Of a stretch of DNA of 64,000 nt, positions 4,479-51,415 are shown piece after piece. The DNA lies in contig JACRIK010000021.1 in NCBI GenBank assembly GCA_016235865.1, forward strand, positions 97,226 through 161,225, given 5' to 3'. Under the pieces are notes generated by a model. The model made no database searches and was not told the DNA's origin. It saw only the letters and a list, made by a program, of their open reading frames with translations. Source of the DNA: Planctomycetota bacterium. GTDB taxonomy: Bacteria; Planctomycetota; MHYJ01; JACQXL01. Each line of letters opens with the position of its first letter. Position 1 is the stretch's first letter. The position numbers and the translations under genes were made by a program.

Positions 4479-4534
4479 AGAGCGTAGGGCGTATAGCGTA
4501 GAAACTATAAGCTCTATGCTATAAGCTCTATGCT
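4479..4534. repeat. repeat family A copy
   Basis: agagcgtagggcgtatagcgtag...ctataagctctatgctataagctctatgct. Confidence 0.7.
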
Positions 4535-4537
4535 ATT

Positions 4538-5125
4538 ATGTGGCAGATAGAAAAAACCACCAAACGCTGTCAGGAATGTAACTCAACTATAGAGGTCAGC
4601 CAGCATTATTTTTCGGCGCTGTTCCCTAATCCAACGGATAAAACAGGGGAGCCGCGCCTATTGCGCCGGGATTTTTGCGCTAATTGTTGGGAGCGGCGGA
4701 CCGCGGCCGGTGAAGAGCCACCCTTTTCCTTCTGGCAGACTGTCATAGAACCACCGGCTGAGCCGCCCAAGACCCCGCGCGAGGTTCTGCTTAATTTCTT
4801 TGATAACCTATTTAAGGAAGCAACTGAAGTGCCCGCGGCAGAGAATACGTCTGTGCCGGTGGTTCAGGACACCAGATTAAAATCCCAGGTAAAATACCTC
4901 TTTGCTTTGATTATGATGCGCAAGAAATTATTGCGGCTGAAGAGCCCGCTGACCCGGGACAATACCCGGTATCTGGTCCTGGAGCGGTTTGCGAAGCCGC
5001 AGCGGAGTCCCGATAACTTCGGGGGTGATGCTAAGGTTTATGAGGTGGCCGAAGTAAACATTTCGGATGAGGAGTTAGATTCCCTAAGGCAGGAATTTTC
5101 ACAACTCTTTGAATTCAGGATATAA
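4538..5125 (+). CDS. hypothetical protein with N-terminal CxxC...CxxC zinc-ribbon
   Basis: 195 aa ORF; CQEC...CANC; no recognisable family. Confidence 0.5.
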   Translation: MWQIEKTTKRCQECNSTIEVSQHYFSALFPNPTDKTGEPRLLRRDFCANCWERRTAAGEEPPFSFWQTVIEPPAEPPKTPREVLLNFFDNLFKEATEVPAAENTSVPVVQDTRLKSQVKYLFALIMMRKKLLRLKSPLTRDNTRYLVLERFAKPQRSPDNFGGDAKVYEVAEVNISDEELDSLRQEFSQLFEFRI

Positions 5126-6315: not shown

Positions 6316-9294
6316 TTATAGATATTTCTTCAATATTTTTCCAGTATAAGAGCGTTCTTGCCTGGCAATCTCTTCAGGGGTGCCGGAAGCGACTACTCGG
6401 CCGCCTTCATCACCGCCTTCGGGTCCCAGATCAATGATATAGTCAGCCATTTTGATGACGTGCATATTATGTTCGATGACCACAACGCTGTTACCGCGGT
6501 CCACCAGTCGATTGAGGACATTGAGCAGTTTATTGATATCGGAGAAATGCAGGCCGGTAGTCGGCTCGTCAAGTATGTAAAGGGTTTTATTGGTGGCGGT
6601 CTTGCCTAATTCAGCTGATAGCTTGACCCGCTGGGCTTCGCCGCCTGAGAGCGTGATGCTGGATTGGCCCAGGGCGATATAGCCCAGTCCGACGTTATCG
6701 AGTGTCTTGAGGATGCGCACGATATGCGGGAAGTTCTGGAAGAATTCCACGGCGGCTGAGACCTCCATTTCCAGGACATCGGCGATATTCTTACCCCGGT
6801 AGGTGATGTCCAGGGTCTCGCGGTTATATCTTTTGCCTTTGCACTGTTCACAGGTGATGTAGACATCAGGCAGGAAGTGCATCTCGATTAGTTTAGTGCC
6901 TTGGCCCTGGCAGTCGGCGCATCGGCCGGCCTTGAGATTAAAACTAAATCGGCCGGACTGGTAACCCCGTAATCGGGCTTCCTTAGTCATGGTAAAGACC
7001 TTGCGTATCTCGTCAAAGACGCCGGTATAAGTGGCCGGATTTGAACGAGGCGTCCGGCCAATCGGCGACTGGTCAATGATAATTACTTTGTCAACATGTT
7101 CGGCACCGATAATGTCGTCGCATTCACCTGAACGAATCCGGCTCCGGTAAATTTTCTTCATCAGCCCTTTATAGAGGATTTCATTGACCAGCGTGCTTTT
7201 GCCTGAGCCGGATACGCCGGTTACACAGGTAAAGCAACCTAATGGGATGGGTACATTGATGTCTTTCAGGTTGAATTCCCGGGCCCTGATGATGTTTAGC
7301 CAGTTATGTTCGCTCGCGCGGTCTCTGCGGAGTTCGCTGGCGCGGTCACTGCGGCCTTCTGATTTGTCATTTTTTATTTTATTATTAGCAGTATTTGGCT
7401 GCGGGAATAGATTGCGGTCAAAACGCCTTTTCTTTGGCACTTCTATTCTTAATTTATTGGTCAGGTATTGCAGGGTCAGGGAATGGTTATTATTATTTTC
7501 TCCTGAAGTTCCGTTAGGCGGTTTTACAGTATTATTATTGTTTGTCATTTTACCGTTTAGGACATCCTTACTCGGAGCCGAGATGATTACCTGTCCACCC
7601 CGGGTGCCGGCGCCCGGACCGACATCAATCAGATAATCCGATGCCCTGATGGTGTCTTCGTCGTGCTCAACTACAATGACTGTATTGCCTAAGTTTCTTA
7701 ATTTTATCAGGGTATTGAGCAGGCGTTGGTTATCGCGTTGGTGCAGTCCGATGGTTGGTTCGTCAAGGACATAGCAGACCCCGACCAGACCTGAACCGAC
7801 CTGGGAAGCCAGCCGTATCCGTTGGGCCTCGCCGCCTGAAAGCGTCAAACTGCGCCGGTCTAATGTCAGGTAGGACAGTCCCACGTCTATCAGAAATGAA
7901 AGGCGGTTCTTGATTTCCTTTAACGCCATCTGTCCGATAAGCGTCTGTTCAGCGGTTAGGACGAGTTTATCAAAGAAGTGATAGGCGTCCTTAACCGCCA
8001 TCTGAATCACCTCGGAGATATTTTTTCCGCCGATGCGGACGGCCAGTGGCTCTGGTTTTAAGCGCGCGCCTTTGCAGGTTGGGCAGGGCAGTTCGCTCAT
8101 ATATGAGTGTATCCGGTGCTTGACTCCTTCGCTCTGGGTTTTGTAGAACCGGTTCTCCAAGTCCGGTATCACGCCGGTAAAACTGCGTTTATATTTGGCT
8201 TCATCTGGTTGATTGGTGCCGTACATCAGGATCCGTTTCTTATCTTCAGGCAGGTTGTAGAAAGGCGCATCCATAGCTATGTTGAAATCGCCGGCGAACT
8301 CCTTGATAACATACGAATAATAAATAGCCATCCGGTGTCCGGATTTACGCCAAGCCTCGATGGCTCCGTTAGCCAGCGAGAGCGACTTGTCAGGCACAAT
8401 CAGGTCCATATCCAGTTCCATCCGTGTGCCCAGGCCGTTGCAGCGTGGGCAGGCGCCATAAGGTGAATTAAACGAGAATATCCGCGGGCTTAATTCCGAT
8501 AAACTTATCTGGCATTCCGGACAGGCAAAATGCTCCGAGAATACCAGGTCGGAAAACCGTTTGCCCTGGGGCTGATGCGAGATGATGACCAATCCTTCGC
8601 CTAATCTCAATGCGGTTTCGACCGAATCAGCCAGCCGGCTCTTTTCTATGCCGGCAGGCTCAACGCTCAGTCTGTCGATGACTATCTCGATATTATGACG
8701 TTTGTATTTATCCAGTTTAGGGACGGATGAGCCGAGTTCTATAACCTTGTTGTCAACCCGGACTCGGACAAAGCCATTGCGCCGGATGCGTTCAAAGACA
8801 TCCCGATGTTCGCCTTTTTTGCCTCGGATAATCGGAGCCAGGACAATAATCCGGGAATAAGCCGGGAATGATTGGATATGCTGGATAATCTGCTGGGCGG
8901 ACTGTTTGACAATTGGTTTATTGCACTTGGGGCAGAAGGGTTGGCCCAACCGGGCGAAGATAACGCGCAGATAATCATATATCTCGGTAGTGGTAGCCAC
9001 GATCGAGCGAGGTGTGCCGGTTCCGCCCCGTTGTTCTATAGAAATCGTGGGAGGCAGGCCTTCGATAGATTCCACATCCGGTTTGGCAATTTGTTCCAGG
9101 AACTGCCGGGCGTAGGCCGAGAGCGATTCGATATAACGGCGTTGTCCCTCGGCGTAAATGGTATCAAAAGCCAGGGAGGTCTTGCCTGAGCCGGAGACAC
9201 CGGTTACCACAATTAGTTTATCACGCGGGATATCAATGTTGATATTCCTGAGATTATGCTCCTTGGCTCCGCGTATGGATATATGATTGGTCAT
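6316..9294 (-). CDS. uvrA: excinuclease ABC subunit A (UvrA) with internal low-complexity/repeat insertion
   Basis: 992 aa; two ABC ATPase modules, Zn fingers; N-term '[42 protein letters not shown]'. Confidence 0.9.
7311..7356. repeat. dispersed repeat family B (modules X+Y) inserted in-frame in uvrA
   Basis: cgcgcggtctctgcggagttcgctggcgcggtcactgcggcc; translated '[13 protein letters not shown]' on minus strand. Confidence 0.85.
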
Positions 9295-11642: not shown

Positions 11643-11708
11643 TCAATAGTGAATTGTGGAATGCGAATTGTGAATTGACTAATCCGCAATCCGCAATTCG
11701 TATCCATT

Positions 11709-13805
11709 ATGTTCCAAAAAAGGATTACGGTCATTGTCGGATTTATCGCGATAACCTTTTTTATCATTGTCATTAGGTTATTCGCCTTGCAGGTTATCAA
11801 TAATTCTTATTATCGAACCCAGGCGCGTAAATATGCGACTCGGATTGAACTCATCGCCGACCCGCGCGGCAAGATTCTTGACCGTAACGGTAATACCCTG
11901 GTTAGCAACAAACTTGCCTTTGATCTTTTTATCACACCGGCAATATACCTAAAACCGAAGACGCCGGCCGGCAAGACCGCAGTCAGTCCCGCTAATAGCG
12001 ACAAAACCGCCGGCAAGAATGATTTGCCGTCTAAATCTGATGTTTCTAAGGCGGCTGATTACAATACGGATGACGATTTGGTTCAGTGGGAAGTGATCAG
12101 GAAGCTGACCGGGCTGCTAAATATTAAATCAGACTTGTTTATTTCAAAGATAAAAGCCATTCAGGAGAAAATCATTGCTCAGGCCCAGACCAGACCGGAG
12201 CGGGAACAAAAACGTTATATCAAGCAACAATACCGCAATAAATACCGGATTTTCTCGGGCCTGACGCTCAATCAAGCCATGCAGATAGAGTCGCACCCGG
12301 AGATTTTCAGGGGCTTCAGCGTTTCGGAAACCATCTCGCGTAATTATATCTATAACGATCTGGCCTGTCATGTTATCGGATATACCGGTCCGATCTGGAA
12401 AGAGGAATATGACCAGTTTGTGGAGAACGGCTATTTTGACGATATGCTCAACCAGGAGATAGACGAGAATACCTACCAGGCGTTGATTGATATGGGCGAA
12501 TTTAAGAATGTGTTCATCGGCCGGAGCGGTATCGAACGGATGCATAACCGCTTGCTGACCGGGCGATACGGTGTTCGGATGAGTGAATTCGATTTTGCCA
12601 CCAGGCAGAAGGACGAGTTGAGCCGGACCGAGTCCGTTCCGCCGACGGATATTATGCTGACCATTGACCTGAATCTGCAGAAGAAACTGGAAGCGGCGCT
12701 TAAAAATAAGTCAGCCGGCGCCGGAATCGTAATGGATATACATACCGGTGAGATCCTGGCCATGGCCAGCGCGCCGTCGTTTAATCTCAACCTGCTTCAG
12801 CCGCCGGTGGATAGTCAGGTAACCGAGTTTATCTCCAAGTCGCCCCTGAAACCATTGTATAACCGGGCCATTTCCGGCGAATACCCGCCCGGGTCGGTCT
12901 TTAAGATTATCACCGCCCTGGCCGCCTTGGAAGAAGGCAAGATTACGCCTTATACGCCCTTTTACTGCAACGGCCATTTTTCGCCTAAATACAAGAAATT
13001 CAAATGTTGGATTGCCGAGCATAACCGGGAGCATGGTTCTCTTTCTTTAGAAGAGGGTTTCAAGCATTCCTGCAATATTTTCTTCTTTAATGCGGGTAAT
13101 TTAGCCGGCGGTGAGGCGATTACCAGATGGGCGCGGAATATGGGGTTCGGTGAGCGCGCCGGCATAGATGTCTCGGGCGAGAAAAAAGGCCGGGTGCCTA
13201 AGTCGCCGGCTGATAAAGACCTGAAAACAGGTAGACCTAATTGGGCGCTGGCTGATACCCTCAATATGTCCATCGGCCAGGGTGACTTGATGGTTACGCC
13301 GCTCCAGATAGTCCGGATGGTGGCGGCCATTGCCAACGGCGGCACGCTGGTCAAGCCGCGGATTATCAAGACCGATATACCGAAAGAGCCGTTAGAATCA
13401 TTACATGAAAACGATTCAAAACTTTCTGTTTCATTCAAGCCCGGAGACAGCAAGCCGGCTGTGGTTCAAAAGAATGAGCCGCCTCAAAAGATAAATATCT
13501 CCGAAAGCACGCTGACGCATATCCGTAACGGGATGTATAAAGTGGTGCATTCCGAGGGCGGGACCGCCCACGGTAGCGGGGTGCGGAATTTCCCAGCCGC
13601 CGGCAAGACCGGCACGGCCGAGGTCTGGGGCAAGAAATCGCACGCCTGGTTTGCCGGATTCGCGCCTTTTGACAAACCGCAATTCGCCTTTGTGGTCGTG
13701 GTGGAATACGGCGGCAAGGGTTCTGAGGTCTCGGCGCCCATCGTGGCCTCATTCCTGCCCGAAGCCCTGGCCATATATCAGCCGGCCCAACCGCAGGGAA
13801 AATAA
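11709..13805 (+). CDS. mrdA: penicillin-binding protein 2-type peptidoglycan D,D-transpeptidase
   Basis: 698 aa; N-terminal TM, SxxK (SVFK), KTG motifs; PBP dimerisation + transpeptidase domains. Confidence 0.8.
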   Translation: MFQKRITVIVGFIAITFFIIVIRLFALQVINNSYYRTQARKYATRIELIADPRGKILDRNGNTLVSNKLAFDLFITPAIYLKPKTPAGKTAVSPANSDKTAGKNDLPSKSDVSKAADYNTDDDLVQWEVIRKLTGLLNIKSDLFISKIKAIQEKIIAQAQTRPEREQKRYIKQQYRNKYRIFSGLTLNQAMQIESHPEIFRGFSVSETISRNYIYNDLACHVIGYTGPIWKEEYDQFVENGYFDDMLNQEIDENTYQALIDMGEFKNVFIGRSGIERMHNRLLTGRYGVRMSEFDFATRQKDELSRTESVPPTDIMLTIDLNLQKKLEAALKNKSAGAGIVMDIHTGEILAMASAPSFNLNLLQPPVDSQVTEFISKSPLKPLYNRAISGEYPPGSVFKIITALAALEEGKITPYTPFYCNGHFSPKYKKFKCWIAEHNREHGSLSLEEGFKHSCNIFFFNAGNLAGGEAITRWARNMGFGERAGIDVSGEKKGRVPKSPADKDLKTGRPNWALADTLNMSIGQGDLMVTPLQIVRMVAAIANGGTLVKPRIIKTDIPKEPLESLHENDSKLSVSFKPGDSKPAVVQKNEPPQKINISESTLTHIRNGMYKVVHSEGGTAHGSGVRNFPAAGKTGTAEVWGKKSHAWFAGFAPFDKPQFAFVVVVEYGGKGSEVSAPIVASFLPEALAIYQPAQPQGK

Positions 13806-15267: not shown

Positions 15268-16119
15268 ATGTTGCCGTCCTGGTTAAAACAGAATAAACCA
15301 TCGCTGGGCAAATCCATGGCAATTAATAATATCATCAAGAGTCATGGTCTTCATACGGTCTGCCAGAGCGCCAAATGCCCCAATATCTTCGAATGCTTTG
15401 CCAAAGGCACGGCTACCTTTATGATTCTGGGCGATGCCTGCACCAGGCACTGCCGGTTCTGCTCGGTCAAGAAACAAGCGCCTCTGCCGTTGGCTTCCAA
15501 TGAAGCGAAGGAAGTGGCGGATGCCTGTTGCAAGATGAAACTAAAACATGTCGTGATTACTTCGGTTACCCGCGATGATTTGCCGGACGGCGGGGCAGGC
15601 GTATTCTATGATACGATTATGGAAGTGCGTAAGACGTCTCCTGGAGTGGCTATTGAGGTCCTGACTCCGGATTTCCAGGGTAATCAAACAAGCATCCGCC
15701 AGGTTGTCTCAGCCCAACCCGATATATTTAATCACAATATCGAAACCGTGCCCCGGCTTTACTCCGAGATTAGACCCGAAGCGGATTATCAGCGCTCATT
15801 AAAACTGCTGGCCTATGTTAAGGAGTTAAACCCGGCCATGCGGACCAAGTCAGGCCTGATGTTGGGATTAGGAGAAAGAGAAGACGAGGTGCTGTCGGTG
15901 CTCAAAGACCTGAGGGTCGTGGATTGCGATATGGTTACCATCGGTCAATACCTGCGCCCGTCATTAAGCGCCGGAACCGTGGAGGTGGCCAGATTCGTCC
16001 CGCCCGAGGAATTCGAGGCATACCGCGCCAAGGCATCAGAGATGGGTTTTAAGGCCGTGGCCTCGGGTCCTTTTGTTCGCTCGTCATACATGGCTGCGGA
16101 GTTGTACGGAGTTCGCTAG
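15268..16119 (+). CDS. lipA: lipoyl synthase
   Basis: 283 aa; radical-SAM CxxxCxxC (CTRHCRFC) plus N-terminal auxiliary cluster cysteines. Confidence 0.9.
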   Translation: MLPSWLKQNKPSLGKSMAINNIIKSHGLHTVCQSAKCPNIFECFAKGTATFMILGDACTRHCRFCSVKKQAPLPLASNEAKEVADACCKMKLKHVVITSVTRDDLPDGGAGVFYDTIMEVRKTSPGVAIEVLTPDFQGNQTSIRQVVSAQPDIFNHNIETVPRLYSEIRPEADYQRSLKLLAYVKELNPAMRTKSGLMLGLGEREDEVLSVLKDLRVVDCDMVTIGQYLRPSLSAGTVEVARFVPPEEFEAYRAKASEMGFKAVASGPFVRSSYMAAELYGVR

Positions 16120-16138
16120 CGCGGTCACTGCGGTGTTC
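16096..16138. repeat. repeat family B module Y overlapping lipA stop codon
   Basis: gcggagttgtacggagttcgctagcgcggtcactgcggtgttcc. Confidence 0.85.
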
Positions 16139-16275
16139 CGATAATTTCGGGGAAGAATTAGGATTAACCCCTCGACTTCGCTCGGGATAAGACATTGTAA
16201 CGTTCTCCCGCCCCAAAGGGACGGCATAACTAACAATCTCTAAAGTTTAGCCGCTAAACAACCGAGAGTCATATA

Positions 16276-16452
16276 ATGGGTTTTTTCTTTTATCTTATCG
16301 GATTTCTTGCCATTGGAGTGTTTTTTGTTATGCTTTGGAAAACCAGGTCCCGGAAAGAGGCCATGAGGCAAGAAGACGAGTGGATGCAGAGTTTGCCTCC
16401 TGAAGAGTGGGGTAGTAGTGAACATGAAGAAGAAGACGAAGAAAAAGATAGC
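16276..16452 (+). CDS. possible small membrane protein (58 aa, below ORF-track cutoff)
   Basis: ATG at 16276, hydrophobic 'GFFFYLIGFLAIGVFFVMLW' followed by acidic tail; overlaps annotated topA start in another frame. Confidence 0.25.
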
Positions 16453-18988
16453 TAAGGCTTCTGGTGCAGGCGCTAAGGCCAAACCGGCCACCAAGATTAA
16501 GTTCAAGTCGCCAGTTGATGCCTCTGGCGCCCCTGAAGCAAAATCAGAACCGGTAGCTAAGGTCAAAAAAGCCAAGGTGGTGTTGCCGGCAACGAAAGGT
16601 AAGTCACTGGTGATTGTCGAATCGCCGGCCAAAATCAAAACCATCAGCAAGATTCTGGGCAGCGATTATGTCATCACCTCGTCTTACGGCCATATCCGTG
16701 ACCTGCCCAAGAGCAAGCTCGGCATAGATATCGAGGACAATTTCAAGCCCGGCTATATCATCATGCGCAAGCAGATAAAGAATGTCAACGCGCTGAAAAA
16801 GATGGCGGCCGCGTCCAATGGCGTGTATCTGGCCACTGATCCGGACCGGGAAGGCGAGGCCATTGCCTGGCACCTGTCCGAGATTCTGGGCATGCCGCCA
16901 GATAAGTTCTGGCGGGTGAGTTTTGACGAGATTACCGCGCCGGCCGTTAAGGAGGCGTTCAGCCATCCCCGTAAGATTTCCATAACCCTGGTCAATGCCC
17001 AGCAGACCCGGCGTTTCCTGGACCGGATTATGGGCTATAAATTATCACCGCTCCTCTGGGACAAGATAACCCGGGGCCTGTCAGCCGGCCGGGTCCAGTC
17101 CGTGGCGCTTCGGCTGGTGGTGGAACGGGAAAGGGCCATCCGGTCATTCAAGCCCCAGGAGCACTGGAAAATAACGGCTGACCTGTCCCACGCGATGCCG
17201 CATGGCTGTCGCGCCCATCAGGGCAAGGACATATTTAACGCGACACTTTACAAACTTAACGACTCCAATGTCGGCAGTCCGATGGACGGCAGCGCCAATA
17301 TCTGGATTGGCTCGGAAACCGAATCCAAGAAACTGGTCGAGCGCCTCGGGAAAAGCGATTTCAAGGTGCTGGGTATAACCGAACGCGAAAGCAACCAGTA
17401 TCCGGCGCCGCCGTTTATCACCAGCACGCTCCAGCAGACCGCGTCCATCAAGCTCAATTTCAGCCCGCGCAAGACCATGATGATTGCCCAGCAATTATAT
17501 GAAGGCGTGGAACTGCCGGAAGGCCCGGCCGGCCTGATTACCTATATGCGCACCGACTCGGTCCGGGTCAGCGAGGTGGCTATCAAGGAATGCCGGAGTT
17601 TTATCGCTAAGCACTTCGGAGAGGGGTTGCTTAATCCGGAAGCCCGGCATTACAAGCCCAGCAAACAGTCCCAGCAGGCGCACGAGGCCATCCGGCCGAC
17701 CTATCCGGCCAAGATGCCGGATGATATCGCCCAATACCTGACCAGAGACCAGTATAAACTCTACACCCTTATCTGGAAACGGTTCACGGCCACCCAGATG
17801 AAACCGGCGGCCTGGAAGAGCAAATCAGTGGAGATTGAATCGCAGTTGGCGCCAGCACTGGAACTGGAGGTCTTCTCCAATGACAAGCGGCACAAGCTCA
17901 TCGCCGAAAAGATACTCGCCTCAGTTGGGTCCGGCCAGAACGGGGCAGTGCTGGAAAAAATCATAACCATATTAAGCCGGAACAAGCAGGACGATGAGAC
18001 GGCCCGGAAAATCATTGAAGCCCTGGGGCAGAATGTGGAAGACAAGGCATTAACCGCCCGGATAATCGGCATCATGGATGAAACCGTGGACGGTGCTCTG
18101 ATACTTGAGAAGATGAACGTAGCCAGATGCCTTTGGAGCGCCAATGAACGCCGGCTGGTGGCTCCGGGATTTATGACCCTCTATAATCCCGAGGAGCAGT
18201 TATTGCCCGGCTTAAAAGAATCCGGCAAGCTGGACGTAGCGCAAATCATCCCGGCCCAGTCGTTTACCGAACCGCCGCCTTATTACAACGAGGCATCGCT
18301 GGTCAAGGTCCTGGAAAAATACGGCATCGGCCGCCCGTCCACCTACGCGCCGATTATTGCCACCATCCAGGACCGGGGCTATGTCATCAAGCGGGCCCGG
18401 CAGTTGACGCCGACTGATTTAGGCCTGCTGGTCAACGACAAACTCGTGCCGTTCTTTGAGGATATCATCAATACCCAGTTCACGGCCCGGATAGAAGAGG
18501 AACTGGATTTGATTGAGGAAGGCCAGAAGGAATTGGTCCCGACATTAAAGGAATTCTACGCGCCGTTTGCCAAGGACTTGGAAAAGGCCCAGGCCGAGAT
18601 GACCAGCGAAAAGGGCAAGGAGAGCGGCGGGAAATGCCCACTGTGCAATAGTCCGATTGTCGAACGCTGGTCCCGGTTCGGCAAATTCCTATCCTGTTCG
18701 GCATTCCCGGAATGCCGGCATACCGCATCGCTCAAGCCAAAGGCTGAGCCGGAAAAGACCGACCAGGTCTGCGAAAAATGCGGCAAGCCCATGGTCATCC
18801 GGTTCAACCGCCGGCGCAGAACCCGGTTCATCGCCTGCTCCGGATATCCGGACTGCAAAAACGCCAAGCCGTTCAAGAAACCCGGTGAAGAGGCAGAAGC
18901 GGCCCCGGAGCCGGCCCGGAAACAAAGCCCGTCGGTTGAAGAGACCGAAGCCAACGGCACTTCAGCAGAAGAGACAGCCGCTAACTAA
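16418..18988 (+). CDS. topA: DNA topoisomerase I
   Basis: 856 aa; TOPRIM 'VIVESPAKIKTI', C-terminal Zn ribbons; Lys-rich N-terminal extension (true start uncertain). Confidence 0.9.
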   Translation: MNMKKKTKKKIAKASGAGAKAKPATKIKFKSPVDASGAPEAKSEPVAKVKKAKVVLPATKGKSLVIVESPAKIKTISKILGSDYVITSSYGHIRDLPKSKLGIDIEDNFKPGYIIMRKQIKNVNALKKMAAASNGVYLATDPDREGEAIAWHLSEILGMPPDKFWRVSFDEITAPAVKEAFSHPRKISITLVNAQQTRRFLDRIMGYKLSPLLWDKITRGLSAGRVQSVALRLVVERERAIRSFKPQEHWKITADLSHAMPHGCRAHQGKDIFNATLYKLNDSNVGSPMDGSANIWIGSETESKKLVERLGKSDFKVLGITERESNQYPAPPFITSTLQQTASIKLNFSPRKTMMIAQQLYEGVELPEGPAGLITYMRTDSVRVSEVAIKECRSFIAKHFGEGLLNPEARHYKPSKQSQQAHEAIRPTYPAKMPDDIAQYLTRDQYKLYTLIWKRFTATQMKPAAWKSKSVEIESQLAPALELEVFSNDKRHKLIAEKILASVGSGQNGAVLEKIITILSRNKQDDETARKIIEALGQNVEDKALTARIIGIMDETVDGALILEKMNVARCLWSANERRLVAPGFMTLYNPEEQLLPGLKESGKLDVAQIIPAQSFTEPPPYYNEASLVKVLEKYGIGRPSTYAPIIATIQDRGYVIKRARQLTPTDLGLLVNDKLVPFFEDIINTQFTARIEEELDLIEEGQKELVPTLKEFYAPFAKDLEKAQAEMTSEKGKESGGKCPLCNSPIVERWSRFGKFLSCSAFPECRHTASLKPKAEPEKTDQVCEKCGKPMVIRFNRRRRTRFIACSGYPDCKNAKPFKKPGEEAEAAPEPARKQSPSVEETEANGTSAEETAAN

Positions 18989-19103: not shown

Positions 19104-19943
19104 ATGAATAATGAACTTGTGCCGGTTACAAAAATAGCCGTTTTTCGCGGCCGGAAAATACGCAAAACCATCCACAAAAACGAATGGTGGTTTTCTATAG
19201 AAGATGTAGTTCGGGTCCTTACAGATTCATTACAACCAGCCGGATATATTAAGGATATGCGGCGCCGGGACCCGGAGATAGCCAAAGGGTGGGGGCAAAT
19301 TGCCACCCCCCTTTTGATTCAAACAGCCGGCGGTCCGCAAAAGGTGAATTGCGCTAATACCGAAGGCATGTTCCGTATTATCCAGTCCATTCCCTCGCCC
19401 AAAGCCGAGCCGTTCAAACGCTGGCTGGCTAAGGTGGGCTACGAGCGGGTCCGGGAGATAGAAGACCCGGAACTCGGCACCAAACGCACCCGGGCATTGT
19501 ATAAAGCCAAGGGCTACAGCGATGACTGGATAGAAAAACGGATGCGCGGCATTGCCATCCGCGAGGAACTGACCGACGAATGGAAAAAGCACGGAGTTGA
19601 AAGGGACAAGGAATACGAGATTCTGACCGCGGAAATCTCCCAAGCGACATTCGGGCTTACCCCGAGCCAGTATAAGAAACTCAAAAACCTGAAGCGTCAA
19701 AACCTGCGCGACCATATGACCGACCTGGAACTGATTTTCTCTATGTTAGGCGAGGCGTCAACCACCCAGATTACCAAGGTGGAACATCCGGACGGATTTG
19801 TGGAAAACAAGAAAGTGGCCCGGCGGGGCGGCAATGTGTCCGGAATAGCCCGCAAGAAACTGGAGCAGGAAACCGGCGGCCGGGTGGTCAGTCCGCAAAA
19901 CTATCTGGCAAATCAGCAGAATAAACGGCTAAAAGATAAGTAA
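19104..19943 (+). CDS. DinD-like DNA-damage-inducible protein with Bro-N-like N-terminal domain
   Basis: 279 aa; N-term 'KIRKTIHKNEWWFSIEDVVRVL' Bro-N-like; C-terminal region resembles E. coli DinD. Confidence 0.6.
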   Translation: MNNELVPVTKIAVFRGRKIRKTIHKNEWWFSIEDVVRVLTDSLQPAGYIKDMRRRDPEIAKGWGQIATPLLIQTAGGPQKVNCANTEGMFRIIQSIPSPKAEPFKRWLAKVGYERVREIEDPELGTKRTRALYKAKGYSDDWIEKRMRGIAIREELTDEWKKHGVERDKEYEILTAEISQATFGLTPSQYKKLKNLKRQNLRDHMTDLELIFSMLGEASTTQITKVEHPDGFVENKKVARRGGNVSGIARKKLEQETGGRVVSPQNYLANQQNKRLKDK

Positions 19944-19948
19944 TGGCA

Positions 19949-20047
19949 AAACCCGGTGAAGAGGCAGAAGCGGCCCCGGAGCCGGCCCGGAAACAAAGCC
20001 CGTCAGTGGAAGAGACCGAAAGCAGCGACGAAGCTACTAACTAACGA
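19949..20047. repeat. direct repeat R (orphan copy of topA 3' tail)
   Basis: copy of aaacccggtgaagaggcagaagcggccccggagccggcccggaaacaaagcccgtc...gagaccgaa...ctaactaacga. Confidence 0.85.
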
Positions 20048-20163: not shown

Positions 20164-22026
20164 ATGAATTTTCTGCGTAAAATATTTAAGAAGAAAGCGC
20201 AGGTTGATCCTGCCAATGATCCTAACATGGTAAAGGCCTATGATGGATATGGTCGGGAAATATTTATCTCCAAACAGCAATGGAAGGACAAGGTACTCCT
20301 GAAGAATCTAGAGGAGAAACGCAACAATCCTAATCAGCTTTATGATTGGCTTTTCTTGGCACTGAAAGATGGATTTGTGCAAGATATTGTTCCTTATGCC
20401 GAGCATTTATGGCGCACTGACCCTATTCCATCCAGGGGAGCCGCAGTACTCGGTATTGTCTATATGAAGAATAACCGCTTGGATGAGGCGGAACGAGTAT
20501 TAAATGATTTCCTGTCAGCACATGGCGATAATGGGGTTGTTCTGACTAACTTGGCAAAGGTATACGATAAACGGGGGGATAAAGCAAAAGCCGAATCAAT
20601 TCTTTGGCATGCCTTGGAGGTTGACCCTAATCAGGAAAATGGGCTTGCTTGGTATATTGCAATTCAGAGTGAGCGGGGAGGCGAAGCGTCGGTACTCGAT
20701 GCCTATCATCATATCGCCGCTTGGCCCAAAAGCTGGAGGGTCCAGCTTTGGTTGGCGCGTGAGGCGCTTGCACGCAAAGATTTGCCAGCTGCGGAGGCAT
20801 TTTACGCGGAAGTATTTGCCAGGGCTGAGCGTCCGGTTCCCGATTATGTCCTTACACAAATAAGTGGAGACTTAGGTAAGAACGGATATCTGGCAGAGAT
20901 GTTTCGTCTGGTCGAGCCTCATTTTGACCCGGCTATTCACGGCTTTAATGTTGGAAATAATCTTATAATGGCCAATCGTGAACTTGGTCGCACAGATATT
21001 GCCCGGCGTATTCTAAATCAGCTTTATGCCCAGAAACGTCCTGATTGGCAGCATGCGTTAAAGTACTGGGACACTGAACTTGCCAAAGACGAAGTAGCGC
21101 GCAAGGCGCAACAAAACCCCGGACAATCTATTGTTTTCATTTCAACAGAAGGTCCGTTATGGGCAAGTAAGGAATCCCCATTTGCAGTTCTCATGCCGGC
21201 TAAATCTGGTAACACACCGCAGATTGCCGTTTTGGGAAGCATGGCCTTGTTTTCGGAGTTATCCAAAAAGCCTGTGCCTCAACTCAGCGATGCTCCGGGC
21301 CGTATCAGCCGGATTGTTGCTCTTTTTCTGGCTGAAAAAATCCACCTTCAAACCGATGCGGTTGGTATAGCTTTAACTCCTTGGGCGCAAAAACTAGGGT
21401 TTGCTGTTTTTGGTAATCCCTACGGCGACAAGGATCTCTGTGAAGTTGCATGTAAGAGTGTGAAAGTTCCGCATTTTATCGTTGCTGTCAATTTTGATGC
21501 TACCCAGTTAAAATGGAAAATGATACTACGCTTATTGAGGGTGAGTGATTGTGTGCGTGTTGCAGAAGAACAGATTGAAGCCGATCCGCTGAATCCCGGA
21601 CCAGCTATTGAGCTTTTAGCTCAAACGCTTCAACAGTTGCTTGCTAAATACGCCGGGGTGCATATTACGGCACATCCGCAATGGTACCAGAATCTATCCG
21701 GACCGGATTTATCTGACTATCTTCTGCGGCTTGAGCAACAACTTGCAGTAATATGTAAAAATCTCGATTTCCTCGAAGGAGGAGGTTTGTTCGGGGAACA
21801 TGAAATCATTGATGGTGTTTTGCAACTCTGTCTAAGTCAGCCGGCAAGCCAATTGGTTAGAATGGTTCTGGCCCAAACGCTCCGGCAGATGAGCAAATTG
21901 CACCCGGAACTTATTTCCGAATATAAAGATAAGATTAATTTACTCCAACGGACTCATCTTCTGACAGGAGAAGTTGGCGAATTGATTAATAAAGCCATTA
22001 ATCAGACAATGACACGGACGGCTTAG
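20164..22026 (+). CDS. hypothetical protein, TPR-like N-terminal region; atypical codon usage
   Basis: 620 aa ORF; codon usage (cgt/gca/ctt, lower GC3) differs from neighbours. Confidence 0.55.
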   Translation: MNFLRKIFKKKAQVDPANDPNMVKAYDGYGREIFISKQQWKDKVLLKNLEEKRNNPNQLYDWLFLALKDGFVQDIVPYAEHLWRTDPIPSRGAAVLGIVYMKNNRLDEAERVLNDFLSAHGDNGVVLTNLAKVYDKRGDKAKAESILWHALEVDPNQENGLAWYIAIQSERGGEASVLDAYHHIAAWPKSWRVQLWLAREALARKDLPAAEAFYAEVFARAERPVPDYVLTQISGDLGKNGYLAEMFRLVEPHFDPAIHGFNVGNNLIMANRELGRTDIARRILNQLYAQKRPDWQHALKYWDTELAKDEVARKAQQNPGQSIVFISTEGPLWASKESPFAVLMPAKSGNTPQIAVLGSMALFSELSKKPVPQLSDAPGRISRIVALFLAEKIHLQTDAVGIALTPWAQKLGFAVFGNPYGDKDLCEVACKSVKVPHFIVAVNFDATQLKWKMILRLLRVSDCVRVAEEQIEADPLNPGPAIELLAQTLQQLLAKYAGVHITAHPQWYQNLSGPDLSDYLLRLEQQLAVICKNLDFLEGGGLFGEHEIIDGVLQLCLSQPASQLVRMVLAQTLRQMSKLHPELISEYKDKINLLQRTHLLTGEVGELINKAINQTMTRTA

Positions 22027-22077: not shown

Positions 22078-22455
22078 GCGACCATAGAGTATCCCCTAAG
22101 CGGGGGCGGTCTATCCCCTAAGCGGGGATGGGCTATCCCCTAAGCGGGGAGGGGCTATCCCCTAAGCGGGGACGGGCTATCCTCTAAGCGGGGAGGGACT
22201 ACCCCCTAAGCGAGGGTGGACTATCCCCTAAGCTGGGAGGGGCTACCCCCTAAGCGGGGTGGGGCTACCCCCTAAGCGGGGATGGGCTATCCCCTAAGCG
22301 AGGTGGGGCTATCCCCTATGCGAGGTAGGGCTATCCCCTAAGCGAGGTGGGACTATTCCCTAAGCCGGGACGGGCTATCCCCTAAGCGGGGACGGACTAT
22401 CCCCTAAGCCGGGAGGGGCTACCCCCTAAGCGGGGATGGGCTATCCCCTATGCGA
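22078..22455. repeat. tandem array, ~17 copies of 22-bp unit CTATCCCCTAAGCGGGGATGGG
   Basis: head-to-tail copies with point variation, no spacers; stops in all frames. Confidence 0.9.
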
Positions 22456-22661
22456 GGATGGGGTATCACGGGTGCGGGGATGGGGGGAGGGGGGAGGGGG
22501 GATACCCCACCCCCCACCGTCTGAACCGGTTTTTGAGATAATAACTTTATGGATAAATGGTTACGCCAAAACCCGAGTGATTTTGGTAGCAGATTTCAGC
22601 CCGGATTACTTATTTAACGAGACATTAGACGACTTTTGGGGGTCGATATTGGCCTTTTGTT

Positions 22662-23636
22662 CTATGTCCCGCCAGAAGATAGGGCCAATGCGGCTGCGCC
22701 TAAGAGGCCGGCATCCTCGCCTAATTTGGCCGGGACAATCAGGGGCTTGCGATAGGGGTGTTTCATTATACTTGCCTTGACTACCTGACGCAGGGGTTTG
22801 AACAGAATCTCACCGGCCTGAGCCACTCCGCCGCCGATTACCACCATCTCCGGGTCAAAGATGTTAATCAGCGATGCGCAGGCCAGACCGAGATAATGGG
22901 CGGTGTCTTGAACAACTTCGCGGGCGAGTTTGTCGCCTTTTCTGGCTTTGTCAAATATTGTTTTAGCAGTAATGTCGTGCGTCTTGCGTCCTACGTCTTG
23001 CGTCCGGACGCCCAACGCATAACGCCCAACGCATAACGCATAGCGTTCTACAATGGCCGGTGCGCTGACCAGCGCTTCCAGATGCCCGGGTTTCCCGCAA
23101 CTGCAGTCCGGGCCATTGGGGTCTACGTTCATATGCCCGATTTCAGCGGCATAGAAATGCGAGCCGCGATATATCTGGTTGTCAATGATAATCCCGCCGC
23201 CTACGCCGGTGCCTAAGGTCAGGCAGATGAGATTCGTTGCTTTCTTCCCAGCGCCCCAGCATTTCTCACCCCAGCCGGCCAAATTGGCATCGTTGTCTAT
23301 GAAGACGGGTATTTTGAGCGCCTTCTCAAGCTCCTGTTTTACCTTCGTGCCTTTCCAGCCAATCAGATTGGGGGAGTCAGCCAGGATAATGCCTCTTTCA
23401 GCGTCAATAGAGCCGGGACAGGCGAGGCCGACACCGCGAACGGAATGACGAATGACGAATGACGAATGACGAATAACTTGATTGACTAATTGGGCAATGA
23501 GCCGGATGCCTTGTTTGCCATTGGGTGCTTTCGAGAAAGAGACCTTTTTCCTGGCCTTGATATGGCCGTTTTGGTCCACCAGCGCCGCGGTGATGTGGCT
23601 GCCGCCTAAATCGATACCAATAGCAAATTTGGTCAT
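22662..23636 (-). CDS. ROK family sugar kinase (glucokinase-like)
   Basis: 324 aa; 'KFAIGIDLGGSHITAALVD', CxCGxxGHLE zinc motif; contains in-frame repeat insertions. Confidence 0.8.
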   Translation of the reverse strand: MTKFAIGIDLGGSHITAALVDQNGHIKARKKVSFSKAPNGKQGIRLIAQLVNQVIRHSSFVIRHSVRGVGLACPGSIDAERGIILADSPNLIGWKGTKVKQELEKALKIPVFIDNDANLAGWGEKCWGAGKKATNLICLTLGTGVGGGIIIDNQIYRGSHFYAAEIGHMNVDPNGPDCSCGKPGHLEALVSAPAIVERYALCVGRYALGVRTQDVGRKTHDITAKTIFDKARKGDKLAREVVQDTAHYLGLACASLINIFDPEMVVIGGGVAQAGEILFKPLRQVVKASIMKHPYRKPLIVPAKLGEDAGLLGAAALALSSGGT

Positions 23637-23715: not shown

Positions 23716-24717
23716 TTAAGTGCCAACCGTCTCAAGGTCAGGTTTTTTGTCGCCCTGATTACACTTCTTGAGCAGTTTTTCCCATTCCTTATCCACATTG
23801 GCCTGGAGTTTGTTGATAAGCTCCTGGTTCGGTCCGCTCCGGTGGGTGCTCCCGGTCTCTGCGGAGTTCCCGCCCTTGGCGAAGATGTGCTTGAACCGGC
23901 CCTGGGGCTTGAGCCATTCGGTGATGGGTTTCTTTTCCTTGGGGATATAATTGAGTTTGTATTCCCCGTTTTCCACTTCATAAAGCGGCCAGTAGCAGGT
24001 ATCAGCCGCAATCCGGGCCAGGTTGATGGAGTCCTTCATCTCGTTTCGCCAGCCCCGGTGGCAGGGCGAGAGGATATTCAGGAAGCTCGGGCCGTCAGCG
24101 GCCAGTGCCTTTTTGACCTTGGTCATCAGGTCGCGCCAATGGGCCGGCGTGGTCTGGGCCAGGTAGGGGATATTATGGGCTGCCACGATGCCGGTCAGGT
24201 CCTTGCGGAAGACCGGTTTGCCGTAACTGGCCGAGCCGGCCGGGGTAGTGGTGGTGGAAGCGCCCATTGGGGTGGCGCCGGAGCGCTGGATGCCGGTATT
24301 CATATAGGCCTCGTTGTTGTAGCAGACATAGAGGAACTTGTGGCCGCGTTCCAATGCGCCGGAAAGCGCCTGCAAGCCGATATCAAAGGTCCCGCCGTCG
24401 CCGCCCACGGCGATGAATTTAATGGTCTTGGTAACCTTGCCCTGGCGTTTGAGCGACTGGTAAGCGGCCTCGATGCCGGAGATGGTCGCGGCCGAATTCT
24501 CGAAGGCGCTGTGAATCCAGTTGCATTTCCAGGCCGTATACGGATAGGTGGCGGTGGCCACATAGAGACAGCCGGTAGCCACGGACATAACCACCGGGTC
24601 TTCGGCGGCCATCAATATCTGGCGGAAGGTGGTTCCGGCGCCGCAACCGGCGCAAAGCCGGTGTCCGGAGACGAATGTTTCTTCCTTCTTGGATAATTCT
24701 TTTAAACTTAGTGCCAT
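23716..24717 (-). CDS. porB: pyruvate:ferredoxin oxidoreductase beta subunit (TPP-binding)
   Basis: 333 aa; 2-oxoacid:ferredoxin oxidoreductase beta family. Confidence 0.85.
   Translation of the reverse strand: MALSLKELSKKEETFVSGHRLCAGCGAGTTFRQILMAAEDPVVMSVATGCLYVATATYPYTAWKCNWIHSAFENSAATISGIEAAYQSLKRQGKVTKTIKFIAVGGDGGTFDIGLQALSGALERGHKFLYVCYNNEAYMNTGIQRSGATPMGASTTTTPAGSASYGKPVFRKDLTGIVAAHNIPYLAQTTPAHWRDLMTKVKKALAADGPSFLNILSPCHRGWRNEMKDSINLARIAADTCYWPLYEVENGEYKLNYIPKEKKPITEWLKPQGRFKHIFAKGGNSAETGSTHRSGPNQELINKLQANVDKEWEKLLKKCNQGDKKPDLETVGT
23828..23874. repeat. repeat family B module X inside porB 3' coding region
   Basis: ttcggtccgctccggtgggtgctcccggtctctgcggagttcccgcc. Confidence 0.85.
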
Positions 24718-24758
24718 AAAATTCCTTTCTTACTTAATTTTTGCGAAACGCCCCTTCC

Positions 24759-24827
24759 GTCATTCCCGTGTAAACGGGAATCCAGTAATCACATGGGGTC
24801 TGGATTCCTGCTTTCGCAGGAATGACA
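24759..24827. repeat. compound palindromic element (ATTCCC-N8-GGGAAT + ATTCCT-N8-AGGAAT) between porB and porA
   Basis: gtcattcccgtgtaaacgggaatccag...tggattcctgctttcgcaggaatgaca. Confidence 0.85.
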
Positions 24828-24838
24828 TAAAAGGGAAA

Positions 24839-26074
24839 TTATTCTCTTACCGTTAAATAGTCAAACACCTTATCAACCTTGCCGGCCTTGGCCACATCAA
24901 ACAATTTCTGGAATACCTTGTTGATGTCTTCCAGCCGGATATCGCGTCCGCCGATTCCATAGATGTAATTAATCATCAGGGGCTGTTTGGGCAGTCCGTA
25001 CATGGCAGACCTGACCTCGGTAAAGGTCGGGGTGCCGCCGGCGCCGAAGGCATCGACCCGGTCCATAACCGCGATGGCCTTGAGATGTTTCAGCGCGTTC
25101 TTGATTTCCTCTGCCGGGAACGGCCTGAAGATGCGGGGCTTGAGCAGCCCGACCTTGACGCCCTTGGCCCGGAGTTCATTGACCACCATCTTGGCCACGC
25201 CGGCCGCGGAATTGATGATGACCAGCGCGTATTCGGCGTCATCCAATTTGTAGGATTCGAACAGCCCGTATTTCCGGCCGGACATCTTGGCGAATTCCTC
25301 GGCCACCTCAAGTATCTTGGCCTTGCTGTTTATAATCGCCTCGGAATGCTGGCGTTTGTGTTCGGTATAATAATCCTGCAGGGCGCAGGCGCCGATAGTC
25401 ACCGGGTTATCCACATCCAGCAGTGAATTTATGGCTTTGAACTCGCCCACGAATTTCCTGACCGCCTCGTCATCGAGCAGGTCAACCCGTTCCACGGAAT
25501 GGGTGGTGATGAATCCGTCCATCGAGACCATGACCGGCAGGCGGATGTCCATATCTTCGCCGATGCGGACGGCCTGGATGAGGTTGTCATACATCTCCTG
25601 GGCGTTTTCGGAGTATATTTGGATCCAGCCGGAATCGCGTCCGCCCATGGTATCATCGTGCCCGCAGTGGATATTTAGCGGCGCGCTTAAGGAGCGGTTG
25701 GCTACATACATTATCACCGGTGTGCGCAGTCCGGCGGCGATGGGCAGCATCTCCCACATCAGGGCGAATCCGGCTGATGAGGTGGCGGTCATGGTCCGGG
25801 CGCCGGCGGCTGAAGAGCCGATACAGGCGCTCATGGAACTATGCTCGCTTTCCACCGGCACGTATTGGGTCTTGACCAGTCCGTTGGCCACGAACTCGGC
25901 GAATTCCTCCACGGCCTCGGTCTGGGGCGTAATCGGATAGGCGGCCACCACGTCCGGATTAATCTGGCGCATGGCCTCGGATACCGCGTTGTTTCCGGTC
26001 ATTGCAGCTATTCGGTTCGCTCCGGTAGGTGCTCCCGGTCTCTGCGGAGTTCTGGCGTTTTTGTTGTCTGTCAT
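24839..26074 (-). CDS. porA: pyruvate:ferredoxin oxidoreductase alpha subunit
   Basis: 411 aa; POR alpha family; repeat-derived N-terminal extension. Confidence 0.85.
   Translation of the reverse strand: MTDNKNARTPQRPGAPTGANRIAAMTGNNAVSEAMRQINPDVVAAYPITPQTEAVEEFAEFVANGLVKTQYVPVESEHSSMSACIGSSAAGARTMTATSSAGFALMWEMLPIAAGLRTPVIMYVANRSLSAPLNIHCGHDDTMGGRDSGWIQIYSENAQEMYDNLIQAVRIGEDMDIRLPVMVSMDGFITTHSVERVDLLDDEAVRKFVGEFKAINSLLDVDNPVTIGACALQDYYTEHKRQHSEAIINSKAKILEVAEEFAKMSGRKYGLFESYKLDDAEYALVIINSAAGVAKMVVNELRAKGVKVGLLKPRIFRPFPAEEIKNALKHLKAIAVMDRVDAFGAGGTPTFTEVRSAMYGLPKQPLMINYIYGIGGRDIRLEDINKVFQKLFDVAKAGKVDKVFDYLTVRE
26011..26057. repeat. repeat family B module X inside porA 5' coding region
   Basis: ttcggttcgctccggtaggtgctcccggtctctgcggagttctggcg (about 2 mismatches vs 23828-23874). 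Confidence 0.85.
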
Positions 26075-26134
26075 CTTAACGTCCCTTCTATAAGATACTT
26101 ACTTTTTTTACCGCGTCATTCCCGCCCCGTGTTT

Positions 26135-26227
26135 GTCATTCCCGCGAAAGCGGGAATCCACGGGATAAACTCCAGCGGGAATCTATACTTCTGGATTCCT
26201 GCCTACGCAGGAATGACAGAGAGTGAA
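26135..26227. repeat. compound palindromic element between porA and porD
   Basis: gtcattcccgcgaaagcgggaatcca...ctggattcctgcctacgcaggaatgaca. Confidence 0.85.
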
Positions 26228-39163: not shown

Positions 39164-39198
39164 ATATAAAACGTTATTCTGTCATTCCAGTCCCGCTT

Positions 39199-39330
39199 GT
39201 CATTCCCGTGAAAACGGGAATCCAGAGGGATAAACTCCGGCGGGAAGCCAGTCCCTCTGACGGGATGGTGGGAACCGTAAGCCCAAAGATGTCTGGATTC
39301 TGTGTCAAGCACGGAATGCCAGTTTAATAG
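39199..39330. repeat. compound palindromic element (partly degenerate) between ftsB-like and ruvB
   Basis: gtcattcccgtgaaaacgggaatccagagggataaactccggcgggaagcc...tggattctgtgtcaagcacggaatgcc. Confidence 0.7.
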
Positions 39331-44745: not shown

Positions 44746-44788
44746 AGCGACAGCGGAGTCCCGACCAAATCGGGGAAGGAGTTTTGAT

Positions 44789-51376: not shown

Positions 51377-51415
51377 GTTATGAATTAATAATTGATAACT
51401 TATAATTCATAATTT

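Follow-up and report, generated by a model that had tools for sequence, protein, structure and literature searches.

The uvrA gene of a 64,000-nt stretch of Planctomycetota DNA (Planctomycetota bacterium, GenBank assembly GCA_016235865.1, contig JACRIK010000021.1, positions 97,226 to 161,225 of the forward strand; this whole stretch is called the window and coordinates refer to it) carries a short GC-rich repeat, which is translated as part of the UvrA protein. The analysis indicated that the feature is a tandem pair of 24-nt units, probably belonging to a non-coding mobile repeat that has colonised this planctomycete lineage. A first-pass annotation of the window had described it as a 46-bp selfish element resembling the Rickettsia palindromic elements (RPEs). 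That interpretation is right in substance, as the repeat behaves as a selfish sequence tolerated in-frame, and wrong in the family and in the size of the unit.

The uvrA array and its insertion history

The repeat unit has the consensus TTC^GCTnnCGCGGTC-N-CTGCGG-N'-GTTC^ (24 nt; carets mark unit boundaries or insertion points), with two main N/N' types, A…T and T…A. The host gene, uvrA (6316–9294, minus strand), encodes a protein of 992 aa. It was assigned on the basis of the list of open reading frames (ORFs) and its translation, a homology search, in which the protein was 100% identical to the UvrA deposited at NCBI as 'MAG: Planctomycetes bacterium' (MAG, metagenome-assembled genome), and a match to solved UvrA structures (E=0). 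The sequence check found the repeat inside this ORF at the annotated position, and the 992-aa frame reads it in the way the first-pass annotation had stated. Tandem Repeats Finder reported the region 7308–7354 as 2.0 copies of a 24-nt period with 91% matches. Placed in register with the other copies, the array comprises two head-to-tail 24-nt units spanning 7312–7359, each preceded by TTC, and the supposed 46-bp element is thus a doublet.

Both units lie on the plus strand and were recognized in the sequence, its translation, the Tandem Repeats Finder output and the consensus scan. Unit a (7312–7335, GCTCGCGCGGTCTCTGCGGAGTTC) is of the T/A type and is translated from the minus strand as UvrA residues E654–S661 (ELRRDRAS). 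Unit b (7336–7359, GCTGGCGCGGTCACTGCGGCCTTC) is of the A type with a decayed 3' end and gives residues E646–S653 (EGRSDRAS), the 48-nt array on the coding strand encoding residues 646–661. The GTTC located directly 5' of the array (7308–7311, plus strand; GAAC on the coding strand) is, judging from the sequence, a candidate copy of the target, and a single GACC/GAAA is present at empty orthologous sites.

The array is situated in the linker joining the two ABC modules of UvrA, which is variable and Asn-rich. The alignment to the solved Thermotoga UvrA (9gxk) was broken at query residues 578–654, and the AlphaFold model, with a mean predicted local distance difference test score (pLDDT) of 82, fell below 50 at residues 590–602 and 636–660. 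The low pLDDT and the break in the alignment place the insert in a flexible inter-module segment, in agreement with the first-pass location of the repeat, and the model predicts that the site is a disordered linker.

Among the 120 best UvrA homologs, a motif script found both boundaries of the linker in 114. Measured between DxGPG and the second Walker A motif, the linker was 81 aa long in 92 of these proteins and 80 aa long in 11, and expansions were restricted to the clade of the window itself (P0001–P0011), in which they occurred at two sites, after VLNGK and after PKKRRF. The DNA of five uvrA orthologs (87–90% protein identity overall, with 83–88% nucleotide identity outside the linker for the close orthologs) was fetched and the linkers were aligned. 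At the second site, two units were present in the window, one in L105 and L107 and none in L106 (MAG219) and L109, and a different 24-nt insert was found in L108. Unit a was common to L107 and L105, and unit b was seen only in the lineage of the window. The empty form of the site reads AAATCA^GACCAC and the filled form AAATCA^(GAACnCCGCAGnGACCGCGCnAGC)n^GAACAT. The absence of the unit from the 92 homologs with an 81-aa linker and from two close orthologs confirmed that the segment is an insertion, as proposed earlier.

In the neighbour-joining tree of uvrA without the linker, MAG219 (no copies) was placed outside all the others. This position requires a gain, a tandem addition in the lineage of the window and at least one precise loss. 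On this tree, one unit entered uvrA after the divergence from the MAG219 lineage, the second was added in tandem within the lineage of the window, and at least one relative lost the unit precisely. Further in-frame inserts rich in hairpins (27, 51, 54 and ~100 nt) were present in the linker of the relatives, which makes it a general landing pad. The UvrA insert would most simply be a tolerated passenger. The neighborhood of the gene also varies: in L106 (MAG219), a gene resembling bAvd/23S-rRNA-IVS proteins (13033–13434) separates uvrA from a T2SSE ATPase gene, and in the window the two genes are adjacent, with no bAvd-like gene at uvrA.

The 24-nt unit, its copies and their insertion sites

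The ends of the unit were examined in sets of copies retrieved with different patterns. The 3' GTTC, which was not forced by the search pattern, was present in 103 of 132 core matches, and the 5' TTC was found in eight of the ten copies retrieved without requiring it, the other two having GTC or CTC. In the relaxed-pattern set, in which complementarity was not forced, the N/N' pairs were T-A (57), A-T (47), C-G (5), G-C (2), G-T (2) and C-A (1), i.e., pairing was kept in 113 of 114 copies with one mismatch. The loop between N and N' was TGCG in 101 copies and TTC, AGTA, TGAT, TGGC or TGC in the rest. By this comparative count, a predicted 3-bp stem, C-N-C/G-N'-G, abutting the GTTC end is maintained through compensatory change. 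In part, the T/A and A/T types could represent two separate lines of descent. Another 3-bp stem, CGC-TnnC-GCG, has variable nn in its loop. Folding energies (dG) ranged from -3.4 to -4 kcal/mol with z of -1.3 to -2.3; these values contradict a strong palindrome, and it is the comparative count, not the energy, that supports the hairpin.

The 27-nt core gave three matches in the window at no more than three mismatches and none in 100 shuffles. A scan with a 28-nt consensus, GTTCGCTnnCGCGGTCACTGCGGTGTTC, allowing up to eight mismatches returned 7308, 7332, 16111, 41661 (minus strand) and 55718, as well as weaker matches at 23842 and 26025, with 0–1 matches in each shuffle. The unit at 16115–16138 (plus strand; consensus scan, ORF overlap) is intact, of the A/T type, and follows GTTC at 16111–16114. 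It provides the last codons and the TAG stop (16117–16119) of a radical-SAM (LipA-like) ORF (15268–16119), and it is nested in a second module ending in the hairpin CCGATAATTTCGGGG (16138–16152). This composite was also detected at the unrelated loci L022, L048, L197 and L205. Another intact A/T-type unit (41661–41684, minus strand) is intergenic, between a trmD-like ORF (40922–41563) and an ORF starting at 41867, and is embedded in a CACAGATT-TC^ACAGATT repeat context; about 20 similar CACAGATT contexts were present in related contigs.

The copy at 55718–55745 (plus strand; core and consensus scans), GTCCGCCGGCGCGGTCACTGCGGTTGTT, is diverged and has the hairpin CCCCGAAGGCTTTCGGGG after it. 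A lipoprotein ORF (54461–55873) translates this copy in a different frame (PPESLRGTTAVTAPADSA; TTAVTAPADSA), in its post-lipobox linker. The repeat search and the consensus scan also revealed two copies of a 39-nt sister family having the 3' hairpin and GTTC (…CCCGGTCTCTGCGGAGTTC) in common with the unit, both on the plus strand. The one at 23831–23869 is read as NSAETGSTHRSGPN near the C-terminus of a thiamine pyrophosphate-binding (PorB-like) ORF (23716–24717), and the other, at 26014–26052, is translated as TPQRPGAPTGAN at the N-terminus of a POR_N (PorA-like) ORF (24839–26074), these two ORFs using two additional frames. With the diverged copy and both sister-family copies included, the window has five other loci, in line with the claim of five or more, and copies are both coding (the LipA-like, lipoprotein, PorA-like and PorB-like ORFs) and intergenic (41661).

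To establish the distribution of the family, one genome per species (185,579 species) was scanned with the pattern TYCGCNNNCGCGGTCACTGCGG, which returned 104 stretches. Multiple copies were found only in Planctomycetota H41-bin223_1 (seven loci) and MAG219 (six loci, seven copies). The other matches were scattered, most of them solitary in their genome and often from high-GC lineages, and are probably due to chance. Single exact matches to the 22-nt pattern were seen in each of several genomes of Lachnospiraceae, Solobacterium and Clostridiales (L005, L008, L010, L032, L059, L060, L062, L073 and L077), and these matches probably represent a shared conserved gene segment and not this repeat family.

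The scan of metagenomes with the pattern TTCGCTNNCGCGGTCNCTGCGG gave at least 120 matches; the family counts below were made among the matches listed, which came mostly from groundwater (Hainich H41/H43 and several JGI sets). After the removal of duplicate contigs, at least 91 distinct full copies with unrelated flanks remained, arranged as 85 singles and six doublets, with no longer arrays. In 121 kb of unselected DNA (the window and five uvrA loci), eight well-formed copies were present, about one per 15 kb. The wide recurrence of the repeat without breaking host ORFs was thus borne out in related Planctomycetota genomes and contigs. All data come from MAGs and metagenome contigs, which might raise the question of an assembly or contamination artefact. 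Such an origin is hardly credible, as separate projects with independent assemblies yielded copies (NCBI MAGs, ENA Hainich groundwater and several JGI samples), conserved genes are kept in frame, diverged and decayed copies exist, and orthologs at ~90% identity share copies.

Forty-eight of the 91 copies were localized in open frames of at least 150 aa and 43 outside such frames. Because 24 nt correspond to eight codons, the insertion never shifts the reading frame, and this length (a multiple of three) makes survival inside genes possible. The antisense frame reading E[HL]R[SR]DRxSE accounted for 28 of the 48 coding copies, the antisense frame reading N[TS]A[VE]TAxAN for 11 and sense frames for nine; the third antisense frame contains TGA in the A type. 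Hosts confirmed by Pfam included IleS-like and ValS-like synthetases, FtsH (unit in the C-terminal tail that follows the M41 domain), RpoN (unit separating the AID from the CBD domain), an NtrC-like activator (doublet flanked by the AAA lid and the HTH) and a Ser/Thr kinase. PheT in MAG219 was confirmed as a host separately from the Pfam set. Many copies were located within about 40 codons of an ORF end. In one ValS-like ORF (L169), the unit near the N-terminus was accompanied by three in-frame copies of another module, TEPSTLNA(Q/P)RSTL.

These data showed that copies persist where eight extra residues are harmless, i.e., in linkers, tails and loops, and that the survivors are mostly in orientations and frames giving the two hydrophilic peptides. 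The pattern fits roughly indiscriminate insertion followed by purging except at tolerant, hydrophilic-compatible positions.

A protein-level origin was considered, in which a charged, low-complexity RSDRASEL-like peptide was expanded or selected in the UvrA linker and the other loci are convergent. It would account for the tandem 8-aa repeat in a variable, Asn-rich linker and for the dominance of one frame, E[HL]R[SR]DRxSE, among coding copies. However, real genes use at least four frames or orientations of this DNA (those of UvrA, the lipoprotein and the PorA-like and PorB-like proteins in the window, and PheT and SHMT-GcvT-like genes outside it), and intergenic copies exist as well, at 41661 and among the 43 non-coding copies. 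What is conserved is the nucleotide sequence, synonymous positions included, and the two members of each N/N' change lie in separate codons without any protein logic. The reading in several frames together with the presence in non-coding DNA excludes a motif of the protein level, leaving this origin very improbable, and upholds the earlier description of a dispersed DNA-level repeat.

A flank-based comparison identified three orthologous filled/empty pairs, each differing by exactly 24 nt. In the first, AGTTC, 19 nt and a second AGTTC in L055 correspond to one AGTTC in the window (19113–19117, minus strand; GAACT on the plus strand). This empty site occupies codons 4–5 of the BRO-N gene (19104–19943), whose product begins MNNEL^VPV, as against MNNELRRDRDSELVPV in the L055 and L130 orthologs carrying the 24-nt unit. 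The other pairs were L031 (filled) and L115 (empty) at CGGTGYTC, and L228 (filled) and L220 (empty) at AGTTC. A fourth pair, L113 and L140, differed as two copies versus one, and in a paralogous pair the sequence AATTC^GTATGTGTCCCC was intact in L120 and split by the unit in L140. Units were also nested at TTC in other short modules: CACAGATT-TC^ACAGATT, GCAGCGGAGT-TC^CGATWATTTCGGGG (window 16111) and CTTCG-TTC^AGAATGACA.

It was thereby shown that new copies arise as exact 24-nt insertions directly 3' of a pre-existing TTC, usually (W)GTTC. As the insertion occurs 3' of TTC and the unit ends in GTTC, each copy is bracketed by TTC at both ends, and the 3' GTTC recreates the target at each insertion, which explains the head-to-tail doublets. 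The exact gain at a pre-existing (W)GTTC fits a 3-nt duplication or a target plus the element's own TTC end. In the flank comparison, N' showed no dependence on the base just 5' of the adjoining GTTC; N' thus belongs to the element, the duplication or target is TTC, and a 5-nt WGTTC target duplication was ruled out. No split halves were found around a larger parent element, which ruled out an excision footprint or the solo end of a larger element. The upstream flanks have the consensus G-A-G-TTC, like the unit's own 3' end, and the comparison of flanks shows a preference for sites resembling that end.

The filled and empty sites also bear on the possibility that the repeat is a selected genomic signal (a protein-binding site, an uptake-like motif or an RNA element) arising in place by mutation and selection or drive. 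The motif is highly conserved and over-represented in coding and non-coding DNA with structure-preserving covariation, and uptake sequences are likewise tolerated in variable protein regions. However, the sites differ by a 24-nt indel and not by substitutions, the density is low, and in most coding copies the coding strand is the opposite of the one on which the C(UGCG)G loop would form. The Rfam search at gathering thresholds detected only a tRNA (58769–58850) in the window and nothing at any repeat copy. Such a signal is consequently an improbable explanation.

Candidate mechanisms of spread

The unit would move as single-stranded DNA with the help of a sequence- and hairpin-specific enzyme, and a HUH-type transposase (IS200/IS605- or IS91-like) acting in trans would be the best candidate. 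The corresponding single strand, 5'-…GTTC^GCTATCGCGGTCACTGCGGTGTTC^…-3', would be cut after TTC. This type of mobilisation is suggested by the hairpin kept by covariation beside the GTTC end and by a target equal to the element's 3' end; the precise unit length, the short fixed target, the lack of terminal inverted repeats and the covarying hairpin match the logic of HUH enzymes. Elements of the IS91 family insert at the short target GTTC/CTTG (GTTC in IS801 and IS1294) without a classical duplication, end in a subterminal palindrome followed by GTTC and are recognized through single-stranded DNA hairpins (PMC13181058), and the REP-associated tyrosine transposases (RAYTs) of repetitive extragenic palindromic (REP) sequences cut at the REP tag (PMC3733652). 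Y1_Tnp genes in related contigs add to the plausibility of an HUH enzyme. However, IS91/IS200-type elements are 1.5–1.8 kb long, and the most reduced functional derivative of IS91 described in PMC13181058 retains 89 bp from its left end and 82 bp from its right end, whereas the unit is entire at 24 nt. The sampled contigs revealed no Y2 transposase.

Several observations weigh against a mobile element driven by such an enzyme. The 5' TTC was forced by the retrieval patterns in most copies, and the covariation count overstates the number of independent events if the two types are lineages by descent. The stems are only 3 bp long, their folding energy is no better than that of shuffles, and such hairpins are far weaker than the known substrates of HUH transposases or RAYTs. 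The orientation of the copies relative to the local GC skew revealed no bias (34 versus 41), whereas IS200/IS605 elements are reported to prefer the lagging-strand template. The all-against-all clustering of ORFs in ~1 Mb around copies found no recurrent gene family, giving only low-complexity or unrelated families, and no transposase adjoined or recurred near the units in the sampled contigs. A crude search of these contigs for the IS91 Y2 motif gave no match. The three distinct Y1_Tnp genes present in the ~1 Mb around copies were bracketed by an unrelated 14-nt inverted repeat, GGGACACTTCCCAC. Finally, the empty sites share 5–8 nt with the 3' end of the unit, which also fits a microhomology mechanism.

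A phmmer search seeded with E. coli RayT and an approximate IS608 TnpA gave one marginal match, which proved to be a genuine Y1_Tnp gene with its own unrelated inverted repeats. An IS200-like Y1_Tnp gene (PF01797, E=4e-20) flanked by GGGACACTTCCCAC lies at ~2560–3330 of L120 and is also present in L123; a partial one with a single GGGACACTTCCCAC alongside is located at the end of L140, and a further one in L222. One Y1_Tnp gene is ~560 nt from a 24-nt unit, and its ends are unrelated to the unit. Inverted pairs of units in L130 and L140 were considered as the ends of a transposon and rejected, as the genes between them are BRO-N, HNH-like and toxin-like ORFs with no transposase.

The main rival is an enzyme-free spread, by microhomology template switching or illegitimate recombination at (W)GTTC, with slippage producing tandems and losses. 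The 5–8 nt shared by the three orthologous empty sites, the resemblance of the upstream consensus to the unit's 3' end, the lack of any mobilising gene among those searched for and the precise loss between flanking GAAC repeats required by the uvrA tree all speak in its favour. On the other hand, templated insertions normally copy nearby DNA, whereas one 24-nt consensus with sharp, identical boundaries was found at ~90 unrelated loci. Slippage should yield longer and more variable arrays than the singles and doublets observed, and the compensatory conservation of the hairpin implies the recognition of a folded strand, which a passive process would not need. Passive spread is therefore rather unlikely, although it deserves more weight than the protein-level and genomic-signal explanations.

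Within the preferred reading of a mobile repeat, a more far-reaching proposal is that the unit could be a 'nano-transposon' and the smallest piece of mobile DNA described so far, which a HUH-type enzyme supplied in trans and cutting after TTC would excise and paste in the form of a folded single strand. We put this forward tentatively, as a possibility that is less likely than its opposite. In such a case, lengths that are multiples of three (24 nt, and 39 nt in the sister family) would be shaped by intragenic life.

Relation to known repeats and implications

RPEs are ~150 bp long; R. conorii has 44 copies, nearly half of them situated in ORFs (Ogata et al. 2000, 2002; summary in PMC10969869). 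They resemble the unit as dispersed non-autonomous repeats found in-frame in many unrelated genes, including housekeeping ones, and translated where the fold tolerates it. They differ in being palindromic, in encoding a conserved peptide of 30–50 aa and in being confined to Rickettsia, whereas the unit gives 8 aa in several frames in Planctomycetota. Insertion in-frame at tolerated positions of many ORFs was observed here as well (48 of 91 copies, the Pfam-confirmed hosts and the low-pLDDT UvrA site). The length of 100–150 bp and the peptide of tens of residues were not, the unit having 24 nt (8 codons) and the uvrA array 48 nt, and instead of a long stem-loop palindrome only two 3-bp hairpins were found. 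The difference in length alone excludes homology to RPEs over the whole element. Of the resemblance proposed initially, the behaviour of an in-frame selfish repeat stood, and the identity as an RPE did not (4–6 times shorter, weak hairpins, a planctomycete host).

The accompanying statement that this pattern is rare elsewhere was overstated, since in-frame intragenic REPs have been catalogued in several phyla (PMC3733652). REPs are 20–40-bp stem-loops with GTAG/CGTC tags, occurring as singles and dimers, which encode up to 20–30 aa and sometimes supply stop codons (PMC3733652). Genes with intragenic REPs include uvrA of Opitutus terrae and of Thioalkalivibrio as well as tRNA synthetase genes (Di Nocera et al. 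2013, PMC3733652), and intragenic elements also occur in uvrB and dnaE of R. conorii (PMC3733652). The unit is similar to REPs in its size (24 nt, or 27–28 nt with the flanking TTC/GTTC), in combining a tetranucleotide tag with a stem-loop, in its single and dimeric arrangement, in occasionally providing the stop codon of an upstream ORF, in its in-frame presence in uvrA and tRNA synthetases, and in the suspected mobilisation by an HUH tyrosine transposase. Its ends are (G)TTC…GTTC, however, with neither GTAG nor CGTC on either consensus strand, and its stems have 3 bp as compared with 5–13 bp. REP dimers are inverted and REPs are mostly extragenic, whereas dimers of the unit are head-to-tail and about half of its copies are intragenic. 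No RAYT gene flanked by units was found in the sampled contigs.

Intragenic MITEs (miniature transposable elements with inverted repeats; ERIC, BOX, QMITE1 and the Anabaena MITEs) are likewise small, non-autonomous and capable of in-frame fusions (PMC10969869). They are 70–300 bp long with 15–30-bp terminal inverted repeats and target-site duplications (PMC10969869), whereas the unit is 3–10 times smaller and has neither inverted termini nor split halves. The arrangement in singles and doublets over ~90 unrelated loci is not that of a variable-number tandem repeat formed by slippage. A full-text literature search for interspersed repeats in Planctomycetes found no paper. Being too short and too weakly palindromic, and having no GTAG/CGTC tag, 5–13-bp stem or terminal inverted repeats, the unit is set apart from RPEs, REPs and MITEs. 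It belongs to neither RPEs nor REPs and is a very small kind of dispersed, in-frame, gene-dwelling repeat.

Other repeats were also observed in the window. The second short module, GC(R)GCGGAGTYCCGAnnnnTTCGGGG, is present at 4981–5024 (in the ORF 4538–5125), at 44732–44775 (upstream of the ORF 44789–45490) and at 16094–16152, where it is split by the unit at 16115–16138. A palindromic MITE-like element of ~100 nt (46318–46428; ends CTAAGAGCCAGTAAC/GTTCTAACTGGCTCTAAG, central hairpin CCCCGAAAGCATTCGGGG) lies just upstream of the ORF 46436–48460; in uvrA of L109 this end motif is part of the translated frame, and in L139, L140 and L199 it is found on both sides of 24-nt units. A 79-nt direct repeat (18878–18956 and 19949–20027, 94% identical) surrounds the BRO-N gene directly after topA (16418–18988), and BRO-N gives the impression of a gene cassette whose insertion duplicated the 3' end of topA.

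Between the ORFs 20164–22026 and 22436–22780, seventeen head-to-tail 22-nt units, TATCCCCTAAGCGGGGAGGGGC (22090–22467, 85% matches), form an apparently non-coding array, which is not CRISPR-like as it has no spacers. A 42-nt tandem repeat (44570–44733, 3.9 copies, 87% matches) extends downstream from the 3' end of the ORF 43880–44575. Heptamer tandem arrays with varied units (TAGAGCG, AGAGATG, GAATGAC, TTAAATC and others) occur mostly between listed ORFs (163–185, 1786–1818, 4479–4536, 11645–11697, 22974–23042, 23443–23474, 50900–50939, 51383–51417 and 63761–63790). Two families of ~30-nt hairpin repeats, GTCATTCCCGnGnAAnCGGGAATCCAG and TCTGGATTCCTGCnTnCGCAGGAATGACA, often form adjacent intergenic pairs (24758–24827, 26134–26218, 39198–39227 and 62921–63018).

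In size, the unit falls far below any MITE and also below typical REPs. Owing to the precise 24-nt gain and loss, the TTC/GTTC target and the covarying 3-bp hairpin, the mechanism lends itself to direct tests with oligonucleotides and candidate enzymes. Alignments, phylogenies and gene calls can be misled when conserved markers contain such lineage-specific 8-aa indels, and in the window the repeat supplies a stop codon and an N-terminus. The units can also serve as fine-scale strain markers in groundwater metagenomes. Selfish repeats that colonise essential genes in-frame are not restricted to Rickettsia and are also at work in free-living, uncultured Planctomycetota, in which the hosts include UvrA, three tRNA synthetases, FtsH and sigma-54. 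If the tentative nano-transposon proposal is true, essential proteins would be colonised eight residues at a time and their linkers continually remodelled.

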